Shown here one piece after another: positions 1 through 15,453 of a DNA stretch of 64,000 bases. This DNA is from Naegleria gruberi (lineage: Eukaryota). The notes beneath the pieces are model-generated. The model was not told where the DNA came from, did not search any database, and saw only the letters and a program-made list of their open reading frames with translations. The position numbers and the translations under genes are program-made. Location of the stretch: NCBI GenBank assembly GCA_000004985.1, contig GG738846.1, one strand, 5' to 3'. Numbering within the stretch: the stretch's first letter is position 1; every line of letters begins with the position of its first letter.

Positions 1-131
1 TGAAGCAAAATCTAGAACCCCAACAAAATAATAAATAATTCTGTAAATATGTAAAAATTCATATAATTACCTTCTAAAATTGTAGGAACAAATCTTTGGC
101 GCCAAAGAAAAACCATCACAACTACAAAAAA

Positions 132-584
132 ATGGGAGTACAAGAACTAGTCTCATCAAGAAAAGCAAAGGTTGTATTGACAACCAGTTTAGATGATAAC
201 CATCCAATATCGAACATGTTAGATGATAAGGAAGAATCATTTTGGATCTCAACAGGAATGTTTCCACAGGAAATAATGTTCCAATGTGAGAGTGTATTTA
301 ATATTCAATCAATTAAGATAATTAGCACCGGGAGTAAGTTTGTTACGTGATCCGAAGGAATAATTTATGGAAATTTAGTAAAACAATTAAGAGTAGAATG
401 TACAGATAAAAATCAACCAATCCAATTTCAACAGGTAATGGACAAACAACTTGTTGATGAAGTAGTCCTCCAAGAGGAAGAATTTGAGGTTAAATCAGCT
501 GCAAGATACATTAAATTCAGAATACTAAGTGGTTATCATAATTTTGTTAGTGTGCATTCAATCATTATCAAGGCCGAAACATAA
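132..584 (+). CDS. IFT25: Intraflagellar transport protein 25 (IFT25/HSPB11-like). Exons 132..333 and 379..584, with a 45-nt intron 334..378 (GTAAGT...TTTAG).
   Basis: Translation MGVQELVSSRKAKVVLTTSLDDNHPISNMLDDKEESFWISTGMFPQEIMF... aligns with human HSPB11/IFT25 (TTGMFPQEF core). Splicing restores the C-terminal half (...RYIKFRILSGYHNFVSVHS), which matches the IFT25 C-terminus. The real ATG is at 132; the ORF-track start at 96 is a TTG. Confidence 0.75.
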
Positions 585-646
585 AATGTTGATTTTACAA
601 TTTTTGTAAATTTATTCAAAATCAATATTCTGATCTTATTTTTCAT

Positions 647-1602
647 CTAGCAAAAGTGGAATCCATTTCCTCTTCCACCTGCTGTTAACAAACTGCTAAG
701 AAAACTATTATATGTTGCTTGACCAGTGACAGCTCCAACTTTTGCAGGATTAATTCTACTAGTCATGACTGAAAAACCATTTGGACCTTCCACTTCAATA
801 TCTATGATATGAGATTCCAATCTGGAATCTGCAACAAGTCTAGCCTTAACGAGGTCAAATCCTAGGTTCTCAGCAGCTAATAAAATAAAAAATAATTATA
901 ATGATTAAATAATAATTGATAATAACAAGTTACAAACCCAGAGAAGCTACTGCCATCGTATTGACATTGTTTGGAGCTATTGGACAGAGTGGACGAACAG
1001 GTCCTTCATAAATAACGTACTCCTTTGTAGGGTCATTAAGGGAAATTTGTAACTTTTCTTGCATTTCTGATGTTGTCAATTTCATACTTGCTGGATGTTT
1101 CTTCATGGTGACAGTTAATCCTTTCAAACTTCCTAACATTCCCATCTTTTGAATATCTAAAGATCCCCAAAGGGCACCACTACAGAATTCTCAAATTGAC
1201 TGTTTCATTCAAATAAACTTACCTTGCAATATAACATCCATTGGTTGACGTTTTGGCAATTGACCTTATTTCCTCCTCAACATTGATATCAGCAAAAGCT
1301 GTTGGTGATCCAACAAATAAATCACAACAAGACAAAAATTTAGATCCATATTCTACAATTATATTTGGATGGGCAACTTCTACAATAATATTTGGATTCT
1401 TTTCCTTGAAATTGTCCAAATTATCCAAATGCCATTCGGATTTTAATTGTTTATCTTCCAATACTTTATCAAATGTTCTATTCCACACAAAGGCAATTTC
1501 GAATTTTTTAGAAGCCCTTTCATCATTTAGTATTTTATCAACAAGGAATTGACCCAACAATCCGTAACCAACAATACCAACACGAGTCTTATTGTCTGAC
1601 AT
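647..1602 (-). CDS. ASPDH: Aspartate dehydrogenase domain protein (ASPDH-like). Exons 1223..1602, 938..1179 and 647..876; introns 1180..1222 (43 nt, GTAAGT) and 877..937 (61 nt, GTTTGT donor).
   Basis: The N-terminus MSDNKTRVGIVGYGLLGQ...EIAFVWNR...VEVAHPNII matches human ASPDH (RVGVVGYGRLGQ...FVWNR...VEVAHP). The middle exon carries YEGPVRPLCPIAPNNVNTMA and the last exon ends GNGFHFC*, against human GIHLC. The spliced product is 283 aa, the same length as human ASPDH. Confidence 0.75.
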
Positions 1603-1736
1603 TTTTTTTGATGGTTGTCACTGGTCTATCATTGTAATGATTCGTCAAGTATTTCTTGTTAAATATTTATTGAACGATTTAAAGACAATAAAGAAAAAAT
1701 TAAAAAATTAAATACTAATAATATGAATATTTACAT

Positions 1737-4107
1737 TTATTCATCTGAATCCAGTTTTCTCTTTTTTTCTTGATCTGATGGAGATTTTGGTTTTCTCTTC
1801 TTTTCACCATCTTTCTTTACAGTTTTTCGTTGCATGGCTTCTCTATTTTGTTTCTTTTCCATTTCTGCTCTGCTCTTACTTCTACACCAAAAAGGTTCTG
1901 ATCTACAAACTGGTCTTTGTGAATCAGTTTCAACTATCTGAATGAAACTAATCTTCTTATTGAGTGCAGAGTTTGGAGAGGTATTTCCAAAGCCAAGACT
2001 CATGCTCACTTCTTTAATTGGAGGGAGTTTGACCTTATAGTGATGATCACGTCTCACAGAGACACAAACATCAAATGGTTCATCCGAACTATTTGTTGAT
2101 TTGTTGTTATTCTTTGAGACATCTTCTGTGAATTGAATAATTGAGTTCTCTGATAATAGCTCCATACAAATATCTGGAGTGTTCATAATATTTGTTGTAG
2201 AGAGATCACTTTCCTTTGATAATCCCCCAGCAAGTCCTGTTAAATAGTGAGCACTTCTCATTTCAATAGAATAATTGCCAATGAAGAGATTCATCATGTT
2301 TTGATCGAAAATTGAAATGTCAGCAATAATAGCATCACTACTAAAGAGTGAAGATTTTTCAAAAGCACAAGGTCTAATTCTCAATTTTAAAGTATCATTA
2401 ACAAATACTGAAAGTCTAGTTGGTTTAGCACTCTTATTAACTGTAAATCCCATTGGATCACAAACCATACTGAGAGGTGCCACTTGTTGAGAATCTGAGC
2501 CAGTTGATTCTTCAGCTGAAGAAGAAGTAGATACATCTAATTTACCAAAAAGCCACTTGGAAATGATACAACGAAGTGTAATAGAGTTTGGTCCAGTTAT
2601 TAGAGATTTCAAGTCTTCTTTTGGAAGTACAGCCTTTGATAACAGGGCACATAAACATCTCTCGTGAGGTGTTAATGCAATACCATCAAAATCTGCCTTT
2701 ACAATTGTAACAATTGAATTATCAGAACTGTGAATAAAGTAATCGAATGTTGGTGAAACTTCTCTTGAAGCACTCTCTGCCAAATATTTACCACCTGTAT
2801 TACCGCCTCTTCCTTGACCACCACGTTCTTTTGCTTCTCTTTTTCTTTTCCTCAGTAAAAGAAACTTGTGTGGATGGTTCCATTGTCTCATTATTGATGG
2901 ATAGAGAGGAGGTATTTGAATCAACTTTTTCAGGTTTTACAATGACATTGAATGATTTCTCTTCCTTTTTAAAATCAAAAGAAAGTTTTTCACAAATATC
3001 AACATTTGGATCAATACTTCCAATGATATCATCCAATTCTTGAAAGATGGAAGGTGACAAATTAGACTCCCTACTAAAACCACTGTACTGAGGTTGTTGA
3101 CTATCGGAGAATGTTGCATCATTTGTTGATATATGACTATTACCATTAATTAATGAATCATGTTGAAACGAATAGTTAGTGGAGGTATTATTATTTTGAA
3201 CTGTGCTAGTATTATTGTTTGCTACGTTGAGATGGTTCATTGAGGATAAGGTTTGGACAGTTGTTGGTCTTTGTTTGAGCATGTTTTCCAACATGAAAAG
3301 CCATGGCTTGGCAACATCTTCCATCTCTTGATGTAAATTATGAGATGATTGACTTGTCCCCATTAACATTAATTCACTCAGCATACTTGTTGGTTGAATA
3401 TTTGTTTGATTACTATTATTGATAGAGTTCGTGTAGGGCTGTGGAGTACTACTCATCAATAAATTATTGCTACTAATAGCACCATTGTGGTTCATTGAAG
3501 GCATGGGTTGTTGTTGTTGAGGAGGAGGAGTAGCAGTATTATTAGTTACATTGGTGGCTGTCAATGAAGATAGTACAGAAAGAAGACTTGGCGGTTGAAC
3601 AGAGTTGTTGACTACAACCATTGAAGTTGAATTATTGGATGGTATCATACTTGTGCCATGATTATACAGGGTTTGTTGGTGGTTAGGTATATTGTTATTA
3701 TTATTATTATTGGGTGTAGTCATGTTCATTAGAATATTCTGACTCAAAGCTTGATTCATTAAAACCAATTGGTTGTACAATAATTGTTGGTGGAGAAGAG
3801 ATTCATTCGTGATACTTGGAGTATTGGTATGAGTTGTAATACCACCACTACCAGCAAGAATAGGTTGGTGGACACTTTGAGTGGAACATTGAATAGGGTT
3901 GGTATTAATTATTGGTTGCGTAAAAGTACTATTATTTGAAGGTGGGTGAATGTGGTTGGATGAATAGTTTTGAATGTTATTGGTGATGGTGGATGGAAGA
4001 TGTTGTTGCTGAGGGGATGCAATAGATGCATTATTGGTGACTAGATTATTGTTACCAAGGAGAGTTTCAAAAAGTTGTTGTTGGTGGTGGTTGTACATTA
4101 TGTTCAA
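1737..4107 (-). CDS. Q/N/S/T-rich nuclear protein, probably a transcription-factor-like gene. It is built from two long ORFs (2800..4107 and 1737..2924) that overlap in different frames and are presumably joined by a very short intron or a 1-nt frame correction.
   Basis: The upstream ORF (435 aa) is poly-N/poly-Q rich and ends in a basic NLS-like stretch KKKRSKRTWWSRKRR. The downstream ORF (395 aa, no ATG) continues with a conserved-looking globular region (SPTFDYFIHSSDNSIVTIVKADFDGIALTP...) and a basic C-terminal tail. Neither ORF alone is a credible gene. Confidence 0.5.
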
Positions 4108-4690
4108 AATAAATTAGTGAGAGCGTTTTCAATTATTATTAATTGTTGAGGAGAGGAGGTGACAATGTAAAATACACAATGATGACGATAAATTAATATT
4201 GGGTGTGTTAGATGCAATAGAGTTATTCTCTGATAGAGACCTGTCAACCACTTTCTCGCGCTTCTAATGGTCAAGATGCTTGATCTATTCAGTTTTTTTG
4301 TTGGAGAATTAATACGGAAGGCAACTTGTCAACATTAGTGTGCGACAACATTGATACATTTGGAAAGTATTTTGGCTTGTACAAATGATTAAACAGAGGT
4401 CAATATGTGTATGATAATAAGTATTTAAAATAAATATTTAAGAAAGGTTTACAATACACGTAATGGTTTTTTAAATGTAATAATCAATAAAATATTTTTA
4501 TCAAAATTAACAAATTAGAGGCCTTAATTTGAGGGATAAAGCGAAAGACATAATATCCTTTCCATTTTTGTACATGTTGTGTTTTTAGATACCAGGTACC
4601 TGTGACATTTCAGGAATTGTTTTGAAATGTTTAAATTACAATTTTGTAAACCAAAACATTAGTTTTTGAATTTTTTGAAAATCTAATTGT

Positions 4691-5286
4691 TTACTTTTGG
4701 AAATGTTTTGCTCTGATACAACGAATTAATTTATCATTTTCAAAATCGCAATGTGTCTTTTGTGCTCTTGTGGATTGTAAACATATGAAGAAATTAAGTT
4801 GAAGGAATTCACAATCATGAATTGGTAAGGTTTGGTCTTTAGCTTGTTTTCCCTGATTAATGATTGTTTCCAAATATGCAGGTCTATCCCATTGTGTTTT
4901 TCCACTCATTCTTTCAAAATAGTAAATGTCTCCTGGACTTCCTCCTTGTATTGATGGTGATTGAGAATTGTTTTGATTTGATCCTTGATCGATTATTTGA
5001 GCGGAACCCCAATTTCCGTGTTGTTGGTAAAAATTATTTGCAAAACCTTCCAAGCACTTCCACATTTGTTGTTCTGCTTGTTGGGCTTGGTTTGGGTCAA
5101 TAGTTGTTTGTGCTCTTATTTCCAACATTTTTCTATTCAATGGTTTACATGGTCCTAATAATGCAGCAGCAATCATATCCCTACGAATTTGGTCATTTTC
5201 GACAGCCTTTGGGGTTTCTGTTTCCTCGCTGGTATTGTTTCCGAATAATGAAAAACCTGATGATGAAGAGGTATCGTCTTTGCTCA
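4691..5286 (-). CDS. WW-domain-containing protein (MSKDDTSSSSGFSLFG...). The C-terminus is uncertain and may have a short 3' intron.
   Basis: This is an ORF with an ATG at 5286. It contains a WW-like motif, GSPGDIYYFERMSGKTQWDRPAY. I could not find a strong homolog. Confidence 0.4.
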
Positions 5287-5448
5287 TTTTTATTTTTATT
5301 AAAAAAAATGTAAAATATTGATTGAAGTAGTTTATTGTCAATCAAAATGGCCAAGAAATTGTGGAATTAATTCTGTCATTACAATTTCATTTAAATAATT
5401 ATTTAAATGATGATAATTTTGTTTTATTGAACATTCATTCCGAAGACT

Positions 5449-7070
5449 TTAAATTTTTGAAAAACTCTTAATAGGAAAACTAGAACTCGAGTAAGACAAT
5501 GAATTGTCTTTCTTTTTTTTGGATCCTGTCATGAAGGTATTATCAGAATCTTTGGCAATATCATCTTTTTTTGAAACATCACCCACCAAAATCTTTTCCT
5601 TCACATACTTTTGCATTTCTGTAGAAAATGGTTCGAGATGGCTGGAGCTATAACTACTCATATATGAGGCATTGTATACAAAGGAGTCATCCACGTGTGT
5701 ATCACCCAAAAAATCCATAGATTCAGAAAGATGACTTGCATTCAGGAATGATTCATCGCTCGTTCTTTTTTGTTTATCACTCTTTAAGGATTTTGCTGGA
5801 CTACCAAAATCTTTCAAACTTGAAGATGAATAGAGTGGACTCTTGGTCGGATTTTCATGATCAAAATTTGATTTCTCTGAATTAACAGAAATTGTGCTAT
5901 GACTCAAATGTTGTGAATTTGTTGGGACCGACTTCTTACTCGATTGGGAGCTATTTAAACGAGAGGATTGAGAACTACCTAGTCTTATTGGAGAATTAGA
6001 GATTGTTGGACTGATCATGGCTGAATATCTATTGCTATGAGTATCACTTCTGTTGGCAGATTTTTCCAGTAAACTAGAGTTTTGACCAGTTTTAGGTTGC
6101 AAGCTACTTATATTGTTTGTCATACTCTCGTTAACTTGGCTAGTGTTGGAAAATTTTGTTGAGCTTGTCAGGTTATTTTTAAGGGATGAAGTCATGTTAG
6201 AAGCTGAGCTTGATGAGGTTCTACTACTTGGATTTTGAGTGAAGAAGTTATTGGATGCGTTTAATGGAGGTTGACGAGGTTGTGGCTCTTGTTCGATATC
6301 ATGGAAATTAGATTGGTCTTGCTTTTCGGAGTGTTGAATTGATTCTTTTGAGTTGAACGAATCAACCTTATTACATACTTCTTCCAATTTTTTCAAAATG
6401 AGTTCAATAGTTTCAGATTGACTTTGAATGATTTGTTTCATTTCTCTACTTTCTACTAGTAGCATATCAATTTTTTTATCCTTTTCGAAAAAGATGGAGC
6501 TTTCTACTGACTTGTCTGTCATGAATGATGTTTCATTGTTAGCTGTGTTATTAAATTGTTCCTTCATAGATTCCTCTGTCATTCCAGTAGAATATGGAGA
6601 ATAAAAAGGTGGATAGAATGGAAAAAATTGATAAGGATTAGGATAGATAGGATATTGAGGTTCCATTTGTAATTGTCTTGTTGATTTTTTTTGTTTCGTT
6701 GTTGACTGTGGTGGGAGAGCAGTCTTTTGGTAAGTAGCACTAGGGTGAAAACCTTTGGAAGCTGGTTGAGTTTGGTGTTTAGCATGTCTGTTGTTATTGG
6801 ATTGAGTAGGACATTGTTCCTCATTATCACTCTCCTCCGAAGGATTATAAAAATGTTGGAGAATGTTTCCCCTCACTTGGTTGGCTATTGTAGAAGACGG
6901 CTTTGAAGAAGGTTTTTCTTTTTTCATTTGGTTGTGTTGCTCCATGTGCATTACCTCATACGCATCACTGTTATCCTCTTCCCCAAACAATTGTTGATCA
7001 ACTTGTTCACTAGAGAAGTAGGAAGAAAGGTTTTGTCTTGGACCGGTGTTGTGTTTTTGGTGGGGTTTCA
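5449..7070 (-). CDS. Ser/Thr/Asn-rich low-complexity protein of unknown function, starting MKPHQKHNTG.
   Basis: This is a 540-aa ORF with an ATG at 7070. It is S/T/N-rich with a short coiled-coil near the C-terminus. The longer ORF-track start at 7140 is not an ATG. Confidence 0.45.
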
Positions 7071-7217: not shown

Positions 7218-8721
7218 TTATTTAGTGAGGGCTTTTGCTCGTTCAAAGAGTGAATCCATTACAGAGTCCATATTTTCAATAGTTTCCAATGCAGCAGGAT
7301 AACATTCATCCTTCTTTGTTTCCTCATATACAATAATACAATCATTTCCTTGATCAAGAATACCATTAAGTTTGTTATCAAGAATCATTTGAGAAAGTTT
7401 TCTTTCAACTCTTGTACGAGGAAGATCAATCAATGAAGAAACGTGAGTAATTTGAACACGAGAGAATGGTTCAATAATTCTCAAAAGATGTTGTTCCAAT
7501 AAATTGTCATATAATTCTGAAAGGTGGGAACTAATAATCGGATCATTTTTCAATTCTCCTTCAAATTCAGATAATGCCTTTTCAAAAGAGTGAAGTGACC
7601 TTTCTTGATATGCAACAGAAACAGCCTTCATAGAATCAACTTCTCTACCAGTATATTTGAGAGCAGTCTTTGTACTGAGGAGTGTTTGAACATCATCAGG
7701 CTGTAAAGTTGGTAAAAAGTCATAATTATTCTAAGAATAACTTACATTATTTGTACAAACTTTACAGAGCAACATGTATTTAAGACACATGACAGCAGTA
7801 TAATCATCAAAGTTACTGTAACCTTCAAAAGCTTCAAAGAAATAAGAGAAGGCAGTCTTGTAATCCTTTTCTTCAGCATGCAATACACCAGATTGCATAT
7901 CAATTTCTGCTTGAAGGAGTGGAGGACAGTAGATAGCATTTGCATCTGTTCTAGCGGATGTGAGAGCAGCTCTTGATTTTGAAAGATTTCTAAGAGAATG
8001 GTAAACCTTACTTTCCAACAACTATAAATTATTGGCTTAATAATTATTTTTAAAGAAACAACATACGTGAATTTCAACTAACAATGCCTTGTCATCTAAT
8101 TTTCTGACTTCTCTCAATAATCTAGTAATTATTTCAAGAGATTCAGTAAATTCCTTCTTAATAAATAATAAATTGGCCAATCTTGATTCAATACGTTGAC
8201 GCAAGAAACTTCTCTTCTCAGTTGTTGCCCACTCGATAGATTCTCTACAAATTTCAATTTGAATTGCATCACTTCCTTTAATTGTACCAACTAATTCAAT
8301 AAGAGTTCTAACAATTTTTGCTGTTTTGGCCTTTGGAAGATCTTGGAAGAATGGTCGGATAGATTTGTTTAATTCCATGATGGCTTGAGCATCACTTTTT
8401 ATACTGTAAATATATTAAAAATCTATTAAAATACTAACCCTTTAGTGGCATAAATCTTACCGAGACTATAGATAGCCTCTTCCTTCTTTTTAATTATTAC
8501 TTCATTCTTTTTAGACACTATTAATTGATCAATTCAATAAATGATTAACCCGATCCGATTAATAAATATTATTATTAAAATTACTACATACTCTCCCCAT
8601 TAATTACTTGAGTAAAAAGTTTGATGGCTTCAGCAGTGTTTTGTTTTTCTTCCTCTTTTGTTGCCTTTTCAAAAAGGGTTGTATAAAACGTTTGTTGATC
8701 AGATGTTGTATTGTCAGTCAT
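7218..8721 (-). CDS. PSMD11: 26S proteasome regulatory subunit RPN6/PSMD11. Five exons: 8592..8721, 8439..8517, 8077..8403, 7746..8031 and 7218..7700. Introns: 8518..8591 (74 nt), 8404..8438 (35 nt), 8032..8076 (45 nt) and 7701..7745 (45 nt).
   Basis: The exon translations join into a 434-aa protein that is colinear with human PSMD11 (422 aa). Examples: KALLVEIH|[42 protein letters not shown]|PDDVQTLL, and the PCI-domain C-terminus [32 protein letters not shown]. The 45-nt in-frame introns each carry stop codons, so they cannot be read through. Confidence 0.8.
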
Positions 8722-8820: not shown

Positions 8821-8905
8821 AACTGGTGAGAGTCGGATTTGAACCCACGCCCTTCGTCTTAGAAAACTGTATCTCTCATTTTGTTTTAAGGTAAACTCCC
8901 TGGAA
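8821..8905 (-). other. tRNA-like fragment with a T-arm and 3' acceptor motif (GGGTTCAAATCCGACTCTCACCA). It is a probable truncated tRNA pseudogene or tRNA-derived element.
   Basis: The minus strand reads ...GAAGGGCGTGGGTTCAAATCCGACTCTCACCA, which has a canonical GGTTCAAATCC T-loop. No complete 5' acceptor, D-arm and anticodon arm can be folded from the upstream sequence, since only about 23 nt separate the candidate 5' acceptor from the T-stem. Confidence 0.3.
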
Positions 8906-9005: not shown

Positions 9006-11078
9006 ATGAAAGGACAGAGGTCTGTGGCCCTTGCACTTGGTGGACGTTATCTGATAAGCAAAAAGACAATGTGTTGGAAGTTTGGAAAATCTATCAAGTC
9101 TACTACCTCTTCAAAAATTAAAAATCATTCGCTTGTTGCTTGCTATCACTGTAAAAAATACAACCCTTCTACCGGAACTAAATACCACCAATATTTCGGA
9201 TCATCTCTAGAGGCAGGTGTTAATTTATTGAAAAGAAAAGAAATTGAATATTTGACAAAATTACAAATTAGAAGCTATTCAACAAATAATTTATATAGTG
9301 ATACTTTTCTTTTTGATGCAGAAACATTTGCTACTAATTTAAGAATTTATTTTGAAGATCCTCCTCTTGAATTGCATGAAGAAGAAAGTGATGCTCCAGT
9401 TGAGCATCACCAACTTCCCAACGAAGAGGCACACGATAATGATATTGTTTCCCTGACAATATCAGACATTATGCCATATCAACCACATGAATTTTTCACC
9501 CAGAAGCTAAGGTACTACATTGATCATAGCTTGGAAAAAATCAAGTCACAACCAGTAGGTGTAAAGAATGCAGATGCATTTGCTTTTTTTATTAATGGAG
9601 GAAAGGGCGTTGGAAAGACTAGAAATACGATTGAAACTGTCGAAGAAATGACATTAGAATATGGTGATAGGTTTTCTAAATTAATGTATTTGTATGCTCC
9701 ATTTCTGAATATGTGCCCTCTTGCAGAGGAAGAGGAAATGTTTGGAAGAGAAGAGTTACTTAATTTTCAAAAATCAAAGAAGCTAATTACAGCACGTATG
9801 ATTTATTCATATTTTACACAATCTATTGATTCATCTGAAGTTAGATCGTATAGAGACTTTCTTGAACACTGTTATCATTTCATTCCAGACAATATCAGTC
9901 ATGTTTCAGAAATTATTAAGTATGATTTGGATCTTGATAATGATGAAAGTCTTGGTCTTTTCATAGTAATGGATGATTGTGATGAATTATTACGAGTTAA
10001 ATTTGAAAATGTAATTACTCACACACCATATAGTTTATTATTGAGAATGTACAATGAATTACCAGGGGTTTTTACAGATAGACAAAATACAACATTTATT
10101 CCAATTATGGTAGGAAAAGATATTGAAGGAATGACTCAGGATTGGATACATAAGCTTGGACCTACACGTCCAACATATTCTGGAAGCTCATATCAAAAAA
10201 ATGAAACATTTACCGTTTGCCAATTTCCACTTTTAAACCAAGATCAAGTTGAAAATATAGTTGATAACATGTTTGACCGAAAAGGACAAATTCCAATAGA
10301 AGATGAGGAAGGAACAGGACAGTTTATTGATAAGGAAAATTGGCGAGATTGCAAAAGTTTTTTAACAGCTCTCGCAATGATAGGTGGGCATCCACTTGCT
10401 CTTGAACATTTCTTACTCTTTATTGCTTCAGTACAATATTTACACAGAGACTTTTTTAATTTTCAATATGCCGTAGAGAAAACCAAATATGAGCTTAGAA
10501 AAACCTACGATCTTACAGAGTTAGGTCTTAAATGCACTGATAATCAAATAGAAAAGATTATTATTAGTCTTTTATCTGATAGACAAATACTTGAGGTGAC
10601 AGGGTACAAAAATTATGAGTTTACAAATTTTTACACTTTCATGAATTCAGGAATAATATTTCCAGTTATCAAACCGGAAGAAGACGAAGTTATAGAATAT
10701 AATAACTTTTATAATTTAGAAAGGGTTGTTAATGTACCCTTTATATTCCTTGATGAGTTAATTGAGCAAATTCCAGAGGAAAGCAAGAGTAAGGAAATTT
10801 TTAGAAATCTTGCTACCGCTCTCAAGAATCTTTTAGATTTACAATTATTAGAGGAACCAATACCTAGAAAGCAAATCAAGATTATCAACACCAAGTACTA
10901 TGATGCCATGAAAGAAGTCAAGAGAAGAGTTAGGAAACCACCAGAAACAGATATTATTCCAGTTTTTTGGAGAAATGTACCTGCAGAAACACCAGAATTC
11001 TATTCCAGTTATGTTAGACATCTTTTGTCTTGCTATTTCCATAACTGGAAGGTTGTATTAGACAAAAATTTAAAGTAA
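9006..11078 (+). CDS. Lineage-specific P-loop NTPase (Walker A motif GGKGVGKT). The function is unknown and the true start may be the internal Met near 9072.
   Basis: This is a long intronless ORF of 690 aa. It has a Walker-A motif FINGGKGVGKTRN, followed by a DD(C)DE-like acidic box, IVMDDCDELL. I recognised no ortholog. Confidence 0.5.
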   Translation: MKGQRSVALALGGRYLISKKTMCWKFGKSIKSTTSSKIKNHSLVACYHCKKYNPSTGTKYHQYFGSSLEAGVNLLKRKEIEYLTKLQIRSYSTNNLYSDTFLFDAETFATNLRIYFEDPPLELHEEESDAPVEHHQLPNEEAHDNDIVSLTISDIMPYQPHEFFTQKLRYYIDHSLEKIKSQPVGVKNADAFAFFINGGKGVGKTRNTIETVEEMTLEYGDRFSKLMYLYAPFLNMCPLAEEEEMFGREELLNFQKSKKLITARMIYSYFTQSIDSSEVRSYRDFLEHCYHFIPDNISHVSEIIKYDLDLDNDESLGLFIVMDDCDELLRVKFENVITHTPYSLLLRMYNELPGVFTDRQNTTFIPIMVGKDIEGMTQDWIHKLGPTRPTYSGSSYQKNETFTVCQFPLLNQDQVENIVDNMFDRKGQIPIEDEEGTGQFIDKENWRDCKSFLTALAMIGGHPLALEHFLLFIASVQYLHRDFFNFQYAVEKTKYELRKTYDLTELGLKCTDNQIEKIIISLLSDRQILEVTGYKNYEFTNFYTFMNSGIIFPVIKPEEDEVIEYNNFYNLERVVNVPFIFLDELIEQIPEESKSKEIFRNLATALKNLLDLQLLEEPIPRKQIKIINTKYYDAMKEVKRRVRKPPETDIIPVFWRNVPAETPEFYSSYVRHLLSCYFHNWKVVLDKNLK

Positions 11079-11086
11079 TAATATGA

Positions 11087-12052
11087 TTGATGGAGAGTAA
11101 TAGCAGAAAGATGCTGAGGGTTGAAAAGTTCATCTACAACAAATTCTTAATAAAAAAAATGTTGAATTTTAATTCTACTGTGGTCAATAATGAAATTATT
11201 CCTGCCGTTCAAAAGGTTGTACCAATAAAAGTGGCAGCCCCAAAACTTCCGAACGCTAAAATACGAGTTAGAATTTCTGATATTATCATTATTATTGGGT
11301 GGCTTGTTTGGATCGCCTTTTGTACATGGTATACATATACTGTCGTGGATAACTATCTTCAAATGCAAAATACTCCAACCACCTCTTTATCATTCAATGA
11401 GACAACAACCTTAGAGTTTCCGGCTATAACTATTTGTAACTATAATGGAAGAGCAGGAAGCTCTTGTCCAGAATGTGATCTGAACTTGGTGCGCATATTT
11501 CGATTAACAGTAACTGGAATAACTTCACCAATTACTGATGGAAACATTAGAGCTGAAAAAACTCAAGTTCTCGACAATGTATATTATTCATGTTACAAAA
11601 TTAATAATGATAAGAGTAACTTGTTTTTAGCAAAAAAGAAAGGTATTTCAGGCTCAATATCTTTTTTATTTGAAATACCAACAGGAAGTTCCTTGTCAAG
11701 AAATGGGTTGCAAGTGACATTCCATGAACCAGGAGCCACACCATCTATTTATCAAGAAACTCAATTCGCCGCCCCTGGAGTTGAAAATTACTTTTCCCTT
11801 ACAAAAGTTGTAAGAACTGTATTGGATATGAATTATGATACAAATTCTGCTGTGAGAAATGTTACTTTTGATTCAGTTGTTTCCACTATTGCTGTTACTG
11901 ATATTCCATCCAATAATGTTCTTGTAACTGTTACGTATGGTACTATGAGTGTGTATAATATCGATGAAGTTCTTACAAACACCATTCCTTCTTTATTGGG
12001 TGATGTTGCGGGTATGATTGGATTAGTAAGTAGTTTCAATTTAATTTTGTAA
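11087..12052 (+). CDS. ENaC/degenerin-like channel subunit with a small extracellular domain. A candidate 59-nt intron starts at 12024 (GTAAGT), and the 3' end, including TM2 somewhere between 12053 and about 12220, is unresolved.
   Basis: TM1 (IIIIIGWLVWIAFCTWYTYTV) is followed by the DEG/ENaC post-TM1 signature FPAITICN. There are several conserved Cys residues, and a pre-TM2-like LLGDVAGMIGL sits at the ORF end, immediately followed by GTAAGT. Downstream frames contain FGKSS.../...FLQLFEL pieces that resemble the G-x-S selectivity-filter TM2, but I could not join them cleanly. Confidence 0.4.
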   Translation: MMESNSRKMLRVEKFIYNKFLIKKMLNFNSTVVNNEIIPAVQKVVPIKVAAPKLPNAKIRVRISDIIIIIGWLVWIAFCTWYTYTVVDNYLQMQNTPTTSLSFNETTTLEFPAITICNYNGRAGSSCPECDLNLVRIFRLTVTGITSPITDGNIRAEKTQVLDNVYYSCYKINNDKSNLFLAKKKGISGSISFLFEIPTGSSLSRNGLQVTFHEPGATPSIYQETQFAAPGVENYFSLTKVVRTVLDMNYDTNSAVRNVTFDSVVSTIAVTDIPSNNVLVTVTYGTMSVYNIDEVLTNTIPSLLGDVAGMIGLVSSFNLIL

Positions 12053-12261
12053 TAATTTCAAAAATAATTTCTTGGAATAAATAGACAATGGGGCTAGATC
12101 TGCTCAAAATTTGTAGAGGTATTTTGGAAGTACCCTATGCTTTCCAAGCCAAAACTATTAAAAACATTTGGAAAATCTTCAACTAAAGTTTTTGGGGAAG
12201 TATTTGAAGCCGCGTTCTTGCAATTGTTCGAACTAAATTTTTAAATAATAAACGTTAAAAA

Positions 12262-13866
12262 ATGGCTCCAAATCATCACGTAAATAACAACAACAAAGGA
12301 ATCCTTCCTTTACAACCCAACAGAAGAAGGAAGCAAAGACTATTCAATGAAAGTGATGGCAGATTACAAGGTGCAACAAATCCGATTTTATCATTAACAA
12401 CAATTAATTCTGATATCGGTATGAAAATTGATTCGGAAAGGAACCAACATTTGGCCAATATTTCTCTCAATTCTGTATGTGAAAGCTTAAATATTCCAAT
12501 GGCAATGGTCGGTAGGTTTCTAAGACCTGAGGAAGCAAGAACCTTCGTTTCTTGTAATATTTGTGCACACAGATTAAATGTGTTGTGGGCCAGTATGATG
12601 AATATGATGGCCAACCTTTATACAAGTACCATGATTGTTCAAGAAAACTCTTTTGATATCCCAAGAATGTATCCAACCATTTCTCCCCTTGTTTATATTT
12701 CTCCATCAATCGTACTGTGTAAACTTTCAGCTAAACAATTATACAAACAAATAGTGGAAACTACTTTTCAAATTGATCAAACTTTAGAACGTCTTAATGA
12801 AGACAAGAAGGCAATGACAACTTTTGAAGAAACAAACCACTTTCTTATTTCTCAACTTGTGAGATATTGCGTTGAACTGGAGAGAGGATCAACTTTGAAT
12901 CAAAATATGAAGACTGTACTTATTAAGGAAAGAGAGTTCATTTCTCATTTTCAAAAAATGATAATCAAGAGATTGAATTTTATATTGTATGGTCTTGATT
13001 TGAAATCTATAGGAATCAAGTTATCAAATACAGATATTTTAGATTTCAGTTCCTCAATATTTGATGTATCAAAAATTTTTGACATTGAAATAATACCTGA
13101 AAAGCCAAAAGTAGGAAAAGTAGATTCTTCTGGGAAAAATCAAGATTTAGAGCTCAGTAATTCTAGTGATGGTAGTGGAAAAAGTGCCATTCTCATTACA
13201 AGCAATTCTCATAGAGAAGAGCTGAATGATGACGACAATCAAAAACAATGTACAGAAAAAGATTCTTTGTCAGGATTTATTCAAACCACCACTTCAGACA
13301 CAACAACCATCTCTAATATTCAAAATAACTTGAACAATGCTAAAAAGAATACAGACTTTTCTGTTGAAACTGTTGAGGAAAGAGGGGTTACTCTTACCCC
13401 TTCGAGCCCTCCTGTAAATATTCCAACCTCCTCTCTTTCACAACCAAAAACAACACCTATTCCCAAGTCAGATTGTAATTCTCATTTTAGAGATGATGAT
13501 ATTCCATTCACCGAAATTTCTAATTTTGTACAGGAAGATGCTGCAATTTTAATGAAAAGTGCAGCATCAGCCACAACTCCAATTATTAAGAAACCTTCAA
13601 GTAACCCAAAGAAAAGTATTCTCAAGCAATCCAAAACTATTCCAAAAAGACCACCTTCTCCACTGATTGATGGTTATGATAGTGAAGAAGAGCCTCTGAT
13701 TTCTGTTCATACATCTACCTTTAGTTCACTAAATAATAAGGATCACGAGAATGTTTTAAATTCTGATTCAGACGATATGAGTGATGATCTTTCAACATAT
13801 AGCGATATCACAAGAAACATTGGGATGCATAAGGATTATAATCCTACAAAAAAACAAAAATTGTAA
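12262..13866 (+). CDS. Hypothetical protein of 534 aa with an S/T/P-rich C-terminal half.
   Basis: A long ORF with an ATG in an A-rich context. The N-terminal half looks globular and the C-terminal half is low-complexity. No homolog recognised. Confidence 0.5.
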   Translation: MAPNHHVNNNNKGILPLQPNRRRKQRLFNESDGRLQGATNPILSLTTINSDIGMKIDSERNQHLANISLNSVCESLNIPMAMVGRFLRPEEARTFVSCNICAHRLNVLWASMMNMMANLYTSTMIVQENSFDIPRMYPTISPLVYISPSIVLCKLSAKQLYKQIVETTFQIDQTLERLNEDKKAMTTFEETNHFLISQLVRYCVELERGSTLNQNMKTVLIKEREFISHFQKMIIKRLNFILYGLDLKSIGIKLSNTDILDFSSSIFDVSKIFDIEIIPEKPKVGKVDSSGKNQDLELSNSSDGSGKSAILITSNSHREELNDDDNQKQCTEKDSLSGFIQTTTSDTTTISNIQNNLNNAKKNTDFSVETVEERGVTLTPSSPPVNIPTSSLSQPKTTPIPKSDCNSHFRDDDIPFTEISNFVQEDAAILMKSAASATTPIIKKPSSNPKKSILKQSKTIPKRPPSPLIDGYDSEEEPLISVHTSTFSSLNNKDHENVLNSDSDDMSDDLSTYSDITRNIGMHKDYNPTKKQKL

Positions 13867-13929
13867 ATTGATAAAATTTGTACCATTTTACAACAATTGC
13901 CAGCTAACTAAATCTTTCAATTAAAAAAA

Positions 13930-15453
13930 ATGATACAATGGCATCCATTAAAATCTATGATAGATAAAAACATCTCACAAATTGAACAAAAGAGACACGA
14001 CATAAATAATCAAATAGAAATTGACAGCTCCGATGAGACTGATGAAAATTCTTTGGGTACTCCTCTATTCGGAAATGTTCTCGTAGACTTTTTACTGATG
14101 ACTAACAATCAAAAAAATGTTTATGACGAATTTATATTAATGCTAAAGAAGCCCACACTACTGAATGAAGGTCTGGGAGATTATATTTTTATTCCATTCA
14201 TTTTTACTTTAGGTTTTAAATATCAGGAGATTATTATCTACTCCATTATTGAATTATTTTGTAAATTTAGGAAAAAATTAATTATTCAATTAATTGAAGA
14301 CTTTTTAAACTTCATGTCTCAAAGACCAAAAATTGATGCTTTGAAACAATTATTTAGAAAATTATGTTACAAAATTAATGATACAACTTTACTTGTAAAG
14401 TTTGATACGTATGAAAATATTAAAATAGGGAAATCAGAAGAACAATTAAAAGAGTTAGACATTTTTGGATTGTACAAAACTAAAACTATGAAAAGAAATA
14501 GTACCATGATGGAAGCAAGTGATCACCAACAGAAAACAACTCCTGAAGTAGAGTCAACTCTTCCAGAGCCATCACCAAAGAAATCTAAATTGATTGAGGA
14601 GGCTATTCCTCATACATCAATAGAATTATCATCAGACCAAAGAAAGGATATTTTGAAACTGAAGAAGCTTATTGAAAAAGCATCTAATCAAAAATCGATC
14701 AACATTCAATCAATACTATCAATTTTGAATAGTGCTCTCTGTCTTAAACAAATGGAAATGATATTTGAAGAATTGTCAATAGATAATCTCAATGATGGAT
14801 TGCTATTTCACATTATACAAGGTCTTTTTTCAAAAAGTGGACTAACAACTAATAATAACCATATTGACACATGTGATCAATGCTCCTCTATTATACAGCA
14901 TTTAATTCAACCAAAATTGATTAATATGAAGCAAAAGGCCTCTAGACATTTATTTTCAAGCATTCAACAAGTTTGTTGTAATCAAAAATTTAGTAATATG
15001 ATTATTGAACTAATAATTCTCAACCTTTTAAGAGAAAAATCATTATCTGTAGATCAAATTGAGATAATTACTAGAATATTAGATAAAATAATTGATGTTG
15101 AAGGGAAGGGGTATTTGTTCAAACTGATTATTGAAAATATTTCCAACAAACAAATCAAGTGGAATGAAGAAACAACCATTAATATTCTAAATAGGGTTAT
15201 GGAAACAAAAAATTTAATATCAAAAATTGATATTAATTTACTGGAGCAACTCATTACAGAATTTGAAGAGATTATTCCCCAATATTCGAAATCTTTAAAG
15301 TTTGCTCTTTTAGTTTCTAATTTTTTAACAATAGTTGGGCAAACACATATCATAAAGTCTCACTACCCATCAATCAAAGATATTATTGGACAACTAGACA
15401 ATAAGATGAAAGAGAATATTGAGAAAAAGTTTGAAAATTTTCAAACAAAGTGA
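13930..15453 (+). CDS. Hypothetical alpha-helical protein of 507 aa.
   Basis: A long ORF with an ATG in an A-rich context (aaaaaaaATG). Leu/Ile-rich helical repeats. No homolog recognised. Confidence 0.5.
   Translation: MIQWHPLKSMIDKNISQIEQKRHDINNQIEIDSSDETDENSLGTPLFGNVLVDFLLMTNNQKNVYDEFILMLKKPTLLNEGLGDYIFIPFIFTLGFKYQEIIIYSIIELFCKFRKKLIIQLIEDFLNFMSQRPKIDALKQLFRKLCYKINDTTLLVKFDTYENIKIGKSEEQLKELDIFGLYKTKTMKRNSTMMEASDHQQKTTPEVESTLPEPSPKKSKLIEEAIPHTSIELSSDQRKDILKLKKLIEKASNQKSINIQSILSILNSALCLKQMEMIFEELSIDNLNDGLLFHIIQGLFSKSGLTTNNNHIDTCDQCSSIIQHLIQPKLINMKQKASRHLFSSIQQVCCNQKFSNMIIELIILNLLREKSLSVDQIEIITRILDKIIDVEGKGYLFKLIIENISNKQIKWNEETTINILNRVMETKNLISKIDINLLEQLITEFEEIIPQYSKSLKFALLVSNFLTIVGQTHIIKSHYPSIKDIIGQLDNKMKENIEKKFENFQTK

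Follow-up and report, generated by a model that had tools for sequence, protein, structure and literature searches.

The stretch of Naegleria gruberi DNA analysed here, 64,000 nt of contig GG738846.1 (hereafter the window), carries on its minus strand two long, overlapping open reading frames (ORFs) that are very probably the two halves of a single intron-free gene, the frame of which is broken in the assembly by one surplus base. ORF1 (2800..4107; 435 aa when counted from a TTG, the true ATG being at 4098) and ORF2 (1737..2924; 395 aa) share 125 nt (2800..2924) and differ in frame by +1; a preliminary description of this DNA had drawn attention to the pair, and the coordinates, the length of the overlap and the one-base offset that it gave are all present in the ORF listing. 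Of ten long ORFs in the window, seven are exact matches to RefSeq proteins of N. gruberi NEG-M, all from a single scaffold of 1,001,995 bp. The genome around the locus, at approximately 33% G+C, is dense with long single-exon ORFs, and both ORFs lie far beyond chance expectation: the homologues of ORF2 show a ratio of nonsynonymous to synonymous substitution rates (dN/dS) of 0.064, and ORF1 has an orthologue that is 51% identical to it. In the reading that we favour, the surplus base lies at 2824/2823 and the functional coding sequence would run from the ATG at 4098, through ...AAA AGA AC(N) GGT GGT CAA..., to the TAA at 1739..1737, giving a protein of 786 aa that the cell would make at full length. 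This agrees with the earlier proposal of one gene with a product of roughly 800 aa, and in the orthologues the two halves are fused.

Continuity in the orthologues and the site of the frame break

A search with ORF1 returned one protein, P0009 (737 aa), which is encoded on a 13,981-nt Logan contig (L003) of a close Naegleria relative, from run SRR21279711. P0009 is one continuous ORF, 51% identical to ORF1 and, over 368 aa, 89% identical to ORF2. The contig is syntenic with the window, both carrying, in this order, RPN6, a gene of 508 aa, a WW/CHCH gene, the gene under study and aspartate dehydrogenase, and its DNA identity to the window is 75-91% across the aligned segments and 84% over the gene under study. 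A profile search added the N. lovaniensis protein C9374_014663 (XP_044553255.1, 860 aa) and the N. fowleri protein FDP41_009186 (XP_044556998.1, 926 aa), the gene for the latter being a single exon of 2,781 nt in two independent assemblies. Both proteins pass without interruption from a lysine-rich stretch into T-G-(G)-GR.G.T.G[KR]YLAESAS[KR]EVSPTF. The three Naegleria orthologues have the architecture of the reconstructed protein throughout, sharing the glutamine-rich N-terminal half with the same islands, the basic, glycine-rich linker, the GxYLAESASxEVSPTF motif, the helical segment, the beta-sandwich domain and the basic tail; all three are continuous ORFs, and the frame break is that of the N. 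gruberi assembly. A homologue from Willaertia was also considered as an orthologue, but was rejected as a clear one: it is a single-exon protein of 414 aa that has no glutamine/asparagine-rich (Q/N-rich) half and different neighbours, and we regard it as a member of the family that is uninformative on the junction.

The DNA alignment with L003 places the break precisely. The window has four extra nucleotides, GTGG, equivalent to one glycine codon plus one base, at ACG|TGGTGG (2824/2823), so that it reads AAAAGAAC GTGG TGGTCAAGGAAGAGGCGGTAATACAGGTGGTAAATATTTGGCAGAGAGTGCT where the relative has AAAAGAAC followed, after a gap of four positions, by TGGACAAGGACGTGGTGGAAATACTGGAGGGAAATATTTGGCTGAGAGTGCT. 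The sole frame-changing difference at the junction is ACGTGGTGGTCAA in the window against ACTGGACAA in L003. Upstream of the break the identity between the two lies in frame 1 (EEKKKRSKRT against DEKKKKSKRT) and downstream of it in frame 2 (GGQGRGGNTGGKYLAES against GQGRGGNTGGKYLAES). The string printed in the assembly is ACGTGGTGG; with one base fewer at 2824/2823 it would become ACTGGTGG or ACGGGTGG, and this one-base deletion yields a stop-free protein of 786 aa whose alignment with P0009 extends from Met1 as far as the C-terminus. The frame-break site on the minus strand is at 2823..2824. An A-rich tract, GAGGAAAAGAAAAAGAGAAGCAAAAGAACG, is found at 2853..2824, and the preliminary description had named a 1-nt indel in this tract as its fallback explanation; the surplus base proves to be the last base, at the 3' end, of that tract, which makes the fallback essentially correct.

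This placement changes how several features of the printed ORFs are to be read. ORF1 ends in ...EEKKKRSKRTWWSRKRR-TAA, but its apparent stop codon (2802..2800, minus strand) is out of frame in the conserved reading, where it falls inside GGT AAT. The ORF1 tail WWSRKRR, taken earlier for a putative nuclear-localization signal, is an out-of-frame translation. ORF2 had been described as having no ATG; it does have one in frame, at 2891, but within the stretch shared with ORF1, where the genuine reading is frame 1, and the first ATG of ORF2 past the ORF1 stop is at 2468 (MVCDPMGF...).

Selection was assessed by Nei-Gojobori counts against L003. The 355 codons after the break gave a dN/dS of 0.064 with a dS of 0.72, compared with a dN/dS of 0.33 for the upstream half. 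In the 24 aligned codons nearest to the break on its downstream side we counted 10 synonymous differences and a single replacement, Thr to Lys, which enters the counts as two nonsynonymous differences; one of the synonymous differences is AGA against CGT, both of which encode Arg in frame 2. The evidence that we computed for a single broken gene is of three kinds: the orthologues, three in number, are continuous, the indel has a defined position, and purifying selection acts on frame 2 right up to the break.

Origin of the surplus base

If the gene is a single unit, the surplus base would be either a mistake of the Sanger draft, in base calling or in assembly, or an indel present on only one haplotype of a heterozygous strain. 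The NEG-M assembly was Sanger-sequenced and the strain is heterozygous. On our own estimates, which are not measurements, an error has about an even chance of being the cause, while a real allele is possible but somewhat doubtful, and the remaining probability falls to the rival readings below. Draft Sanger assemblies carry indel errors at a rate able to produce such a base. A separate NEG-M contig of 1,059 bp encodes a 174-aa protein (XP_002667947.1) that has exactly the sequence of the last 174 residues of the protein under study; it looks like an unmerged duplicate or an allelic contig of the reference assembly, and this duplication of the 3' end is a hint of assembly trouble at the locus.

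An independent N. gruberi sequence across the junction was sought in several ways. None was found by exact look-ups of the ORF1, ORF2, 761-aa, 786-aa and 785-aa proteins, nor by exact look-ups of five N-terminally shortened variants of ORF2, and JGI metagenomes, scanned once with a DNA pattern and once under protein guidance, likewise returned no sequence spanning it. Three contigs of the ENA metagenome ERZ929261 (L007, L001 and L006) are 99.1-99.9% identical to the window, at 5..1657, 4486..5576 and 10557..14276, respectively, indicating that a strain very close to NEG-M was present in that sample; no contig of that metagenome covers 1658..4485, and the matches end on either side of the gene.

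The alternative that survives best, although we consider it unlikely, is that NEG-M, a laboratory-derived strain, truly carries the extra base in homozygous form, as a very recent loss-of-function mutation, fixed for example in this axenic laboratory clone. The product would then be a protein of 432 aa ending in ...KRTWWSRKRR, with the C-terminal domain untranslated, and the locus would be a nascent pseudogene or a truncated allele. The printed sequence does carry the frameshift, and no intact N. gruberi copy was found in the look-ups made. However, the 1,083 nt downstream have no second disabling mutation and show a dN/dS of 0.064, and any such loss must therefore have been very recent. An old, decayed pseudogene is excluded by the same intact and constrained downstream ORF, which has no further stop codon or indel and keeps this low ratio over 355 codons.

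The existing gene model and other ways of restoring the frame

The locus turned out, on a cluster look-up, to be annotated already, as NAEGRDRAFT_45566 (XP_002682977.1/EFC50233.1), a 'predicted protein' of 761 aa from N. gruberi NEG-M. It is therefore a problem of assembly or annotation rather than new biology. The deposited model treats ORF1 and ORF2 as a single gene and has the same start and stop as our reconstruction, but it differs in containing an intron, whereas the reconstruction has none and encodes 786 aa. Excision of 76 nt (2728..2803, minus strand), bounded by GTAATA at the donor end and TTCACAG at the acceptor end, exactly reproduces the junction of XP_002682977.1, ...KRTWWSRKRR|SDNSIV..., as well as its length of 761 aa. 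This 'intron' removes 25 conserved residues, and the model carries in addition the seven out-of-frame residues WWSRKRR; in all it is without 32 conserved residues, GGQGRGGNTGGKYLAESASREVSPTFDYFIHS, among which is the most conserved linker motif of the protein. That motif, G.T.G[KR]YLAESAS[KR]EVSPTF[DE]YFI, is the best-conserved part of the linker in all four Naegleria orthologues and is exactly what the deposited model lacks. The 76-nt intron is probably spurious, a prediction artefact that bridges the frameshift.

The preliminary description had offered a different solution, a 31-nt GT..AG intron that joins ...SRKR-R to ASREVSP. Such an interval, GTAATACAGGTGGTAAATATTTGGCAGAGAG, does exist, but at 2773..2803 on the minus strand rather than at 2768..2798, and it does not explain the frame break. 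We consider it very improbable that a real spliceosomal intron, either this one (2803..2773) or that of 76 nt (2803..2728), restores the frame, even in the variant in which coding sequence was perhaps turned into intron recently, after the frameshift. Both intervals have GT..AG ends, the removal of either restores an open frame, the deposited model uses the longer one, and short introns do occur nearby, for example one of 35 nt in RPN6 and, as an unconfirmed candidate, the 29-nt interval at 11075..11103 described below. Nevertheless, neither interval is an intron in our view, because both lie in conserved coding sequence. In frame 2 the two intervals encode the residues GNTGGKYLAES(ASREVSPTFDYFIH), of which GNTGGKYLAES belongs to the 31-nt one, and these are conserved in the four Naegleria orthologues. 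Within the 31-nt interval L003 differs only synonymously; the 24 codons counted above cover the whole of this interval and most of the 76-nt one. The frame-2 conservation, moreover, begins at 2822 (GGQGRGG, 2822..2802), 19 nt before the donor is reached, which no intron beginning at 2803 can explain. L003 has neither the donor GT (GGTAAT in the window, GGAAAT in L003) nor the acceptor AG of the 76-nt interval (CACAG against CACAA), and the orthologues are single ORFs.

The composition of the two intervals also sets them apart from bona fide introns of the window. The RPN6 gene (7218..8720, minus strand) contains four clear introns, of 74, 35, 45 and 45 nt, which are 76-86% A+T and have the donors GTATGT, GTTAGT, GTATGT and GTAAGT and acceptors of the form ATAG or ACAG. 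The two candidates, in contrast, are 61-63% A+T (61% for the 31-nt interval); their donor, GTAATA, departs from the local consensus, and their acceptors are GAGAG and CACAG. There are 156 frame-restoring GT..AG pairs of 20-400 nt around the junction, and a GT..AG that restores the frame is therefore uninformative on its own; prediction software and human readers alike can almost always draw on such a pair to bridge a frameshift, and a single close orthologue suffices to expose it as false. The main value of the present result is accordingly one of curation, in that either the reference sequence or the XP_002682977.1 model needs correction.

It seems to us just as improbable that NEG-M is fixed for a genuine extra base and that a full-length or nearly full-length protein is still made from it, whether through intronization that rescues the frameshift or through +1 frameshifting. 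Programmed +1 ribosomal frameshifting as such, at ACG-U-GGU or at the stop (CGG-UAA-U), has a smaller probability still. Stop-codon-associated +1 frameshift sites occur in antizyme and in Euplotes, and the locus resembles these in that the shift needed is +1 and a 0-frame stop, in the context CGG UAA U, follows shortly after the break, 21 nt downstream. It is unlike them in that the orthologues do not share the site, the frame-2 reading is already conserved before the stop is reached, and no recognizable shift motif or RNA structure is present. The three orthologues need no frameshifting, and a site here would accordingly be an innovation of a single strain; the codons from 2822 to 2803, including the AGA/CGT Arg codon, are conserved in frame 2, which is incompatible with a shift at the stop; and the position to which the shift is then forced, ACG|U|GGU, matches by inspection no known slippery or hungry-codon motif. 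The fold of 2860..2740 has an energy of -17.6 kcal/mol, with z = 0.10 against shuffled sequences, giving no sign of a downstream RNA structure, a feature that +1 sites can also do without. Least probable of all is that the locus encodes two separate proteins, ORF1 as printed, with its terminator at 2802..2800, and a product of ORF2 starting at the ATG at 2468: the paralogue-like Willaertia homologue does have only 414 aa and no long Q/N-rich half, but the 355 nt that separate the break (2823) from this ATG are open and strongly conserved in frame 2, they include the GKYLAESASREVSP motif and the helical segment, and all three Naegleria orthologues are fused.

The protein, its family and other features of the window

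Read as a single broken gene, the locus has the overall architecture that was first proposed for it, a low-complexity N-terminal half followed by a structured C-terminal domain; the former is Q/N-rich with short conserved islands, and for the latter a folded-domain model was obtained. The first part of the coding sequence (2825..4098, minus strand, as are all the parts of the gene described below) is in frame 1 and covers residues 1-425, including the first two bases of the Thr425 codon. The start, MYNHHQQQLFETLL, is kept in relatives (MFNHQQQLFETLL; MYQQQPPLTLLESFL). In a five-way alignment the most conserved island of this half is QPQYSGFSRESNLSPSIFQELDDIIGSIDPNVDICEKLSF (residues 335-374; 2977..3096), which is both acidic and hydrophobic and may on that account resemble an activation motif. 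The second part (1737..2822) is in frame 2 and covers residues 426-786, from GGT GGT CAA to the TAA at 1739..1737. It begins in the linker, in which the motif GKYLAESASREVSPTFDYFI (residues 436-455; 2733..2792) is nearly invariant in N. gruberi, L003, N. lovaniensis and N. fowleri.

The linker is followed by a conserved helical segment, LTPHERCLCALLSKAVLPKEDLKSLITGPNSITLRCIISKWLFGKLDV (residues 475-522; 2532..2675), defined by alignment and with its helices predicted at low confidence. We take its spacing to recall that of the bacterial LuxR/GerE-type helix-turn-helix, although this likeness finds no support in Pfam, where the sole hint of a helix-turn-helix was a very weak match of the N. lovaniensis orthologue to HTH_SB (E=0.25). 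The C-terminal family domain (residues 537-762; 1812..2489), delimited by profile search, alignments, AlphaFold2 and fold searches, consists of a predicted beta-sandwich and then a long basic helix, and contains the motifs CxPxGF, KPTRLSVFVND, RRD, KKISFIQIV and RSEPFWCRSKSRAEMEKK. AlphaFold2, run on an alignment of 19 domain sequences, gave the beta-sandwich and the long helix with a predicted local distance difference test score (pLDDT) of 74.6 and a predicted template modelling score (pTM) of 0.70. The Lys/Arg-rich C-terminal tail, KKDGEKKRKPKSPSDQEKKRKLD (1749..1817), could from its composition serve as a nuclear-localization signal.

The profile search gave 23 cluster representatives at E below 1e-3, and the 10 of these that were looked up all come from Naegleria, Willaertia or metagenome contigs. 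The family, which includes FDP41_009186, C9374_014663 and ABK040_012648, has no Pfam entry. Its members share a C-terminal domain of approximately 200 aa, followed by Lys/Arg-rich tails, and the motifs CxPxGF, KP..SV[FY]VND, [KR]RD, KK[IV]xF[IV]Q[IV] and RS[ED]..W.[RK]SK[ST]R.EME.KK are invariant or nearly so in the alignments and are present in the N. gruberi protein. Pfam searches with both ORFs, 24 family members and the helical segment gave nothing usable, and in particular no match to P53, NDT80_PhoG, CP2 or related entries; a sequence-profile search of the PDB gave no match at E values up to 10. The known systems with which the C-terminal immunoglobulin-like (Ig-like) beta-sandwich was compared are the DNA-binding core of the p53 family (Caenorhabditis elegans CEP-1, 1t4w, human p53 and p73) and Grainyhead/CP2 (5mph); membership of the p53-like superfamily is not established, and the link to transcription factors is weak.

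The protein is probably nuclear and may act as a sequence-specific regulator, in that it combines a Q/N-rich N-terminal half bearing acidic and hydrophobic islands, a basic stretch, the GKYLAESASREVSP motif, the helical segment, the Ig-like beta-sandwich with its long basic helix and the Lys/Arg-rich tail. That the family as a whole is a class of DNA-binding regulators with an Ig fold, restricted to the heterolobosean lineage, we hold to be possible, and more likely than the rescue of a fixed frameshift by intronization or +1 frameshifting. The transcription factors of Naegleria are poorly catalogued, and the family comprises at least 23 sequence clusters; of the members looked up, none has an assignment in Pfam, the PDB or the literature. 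Judged by its architecture, the family could reasonably be proposed as one of lineage-specific Naegleria transcription factors, which we offer as a lead and not as a result.

Three further features of the window deserve a brief description. Just upstream of RPN6, at approximately 8836..8870 on the minus strand, the sequence GGGCGTGGGTTCAAATCCGACTCTCACCA resembles the T-arm and the 3' half of the acceptor of a tRNA; ARAGORN and Rfam returned nothing at this position, which may be a tRNA-derived remnant. An ORF of 198 aa at 4694..5287 (minus strand) has weak matches to the WW and CHCH domains. Its exact product was found only in the ENA metagenome and not among the N. gruberi gene calls returned, and the reference may model this ORF differently or not at all.

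On the plus strand, a 29-nt GTAATA..TAG interval at 11075..11103, GTAATAATATGATTGATGGAGAGTAATAG, with 72% A+T, is a candidate, unconfirmed intron. Its excision fuses the ORF at 9006..11078 (690 aa) in frame with that at 11087..12052 (321 aa). The sequence is identical in the independent ENA contig L006, which rules out an error of assembly; the interval is an intron of exceptional shortness or else the boundary between two genes, the second of the two ORFs matching the Pfam family ASC (amiloride-sensitive sodium channel family) with E=9e-15.

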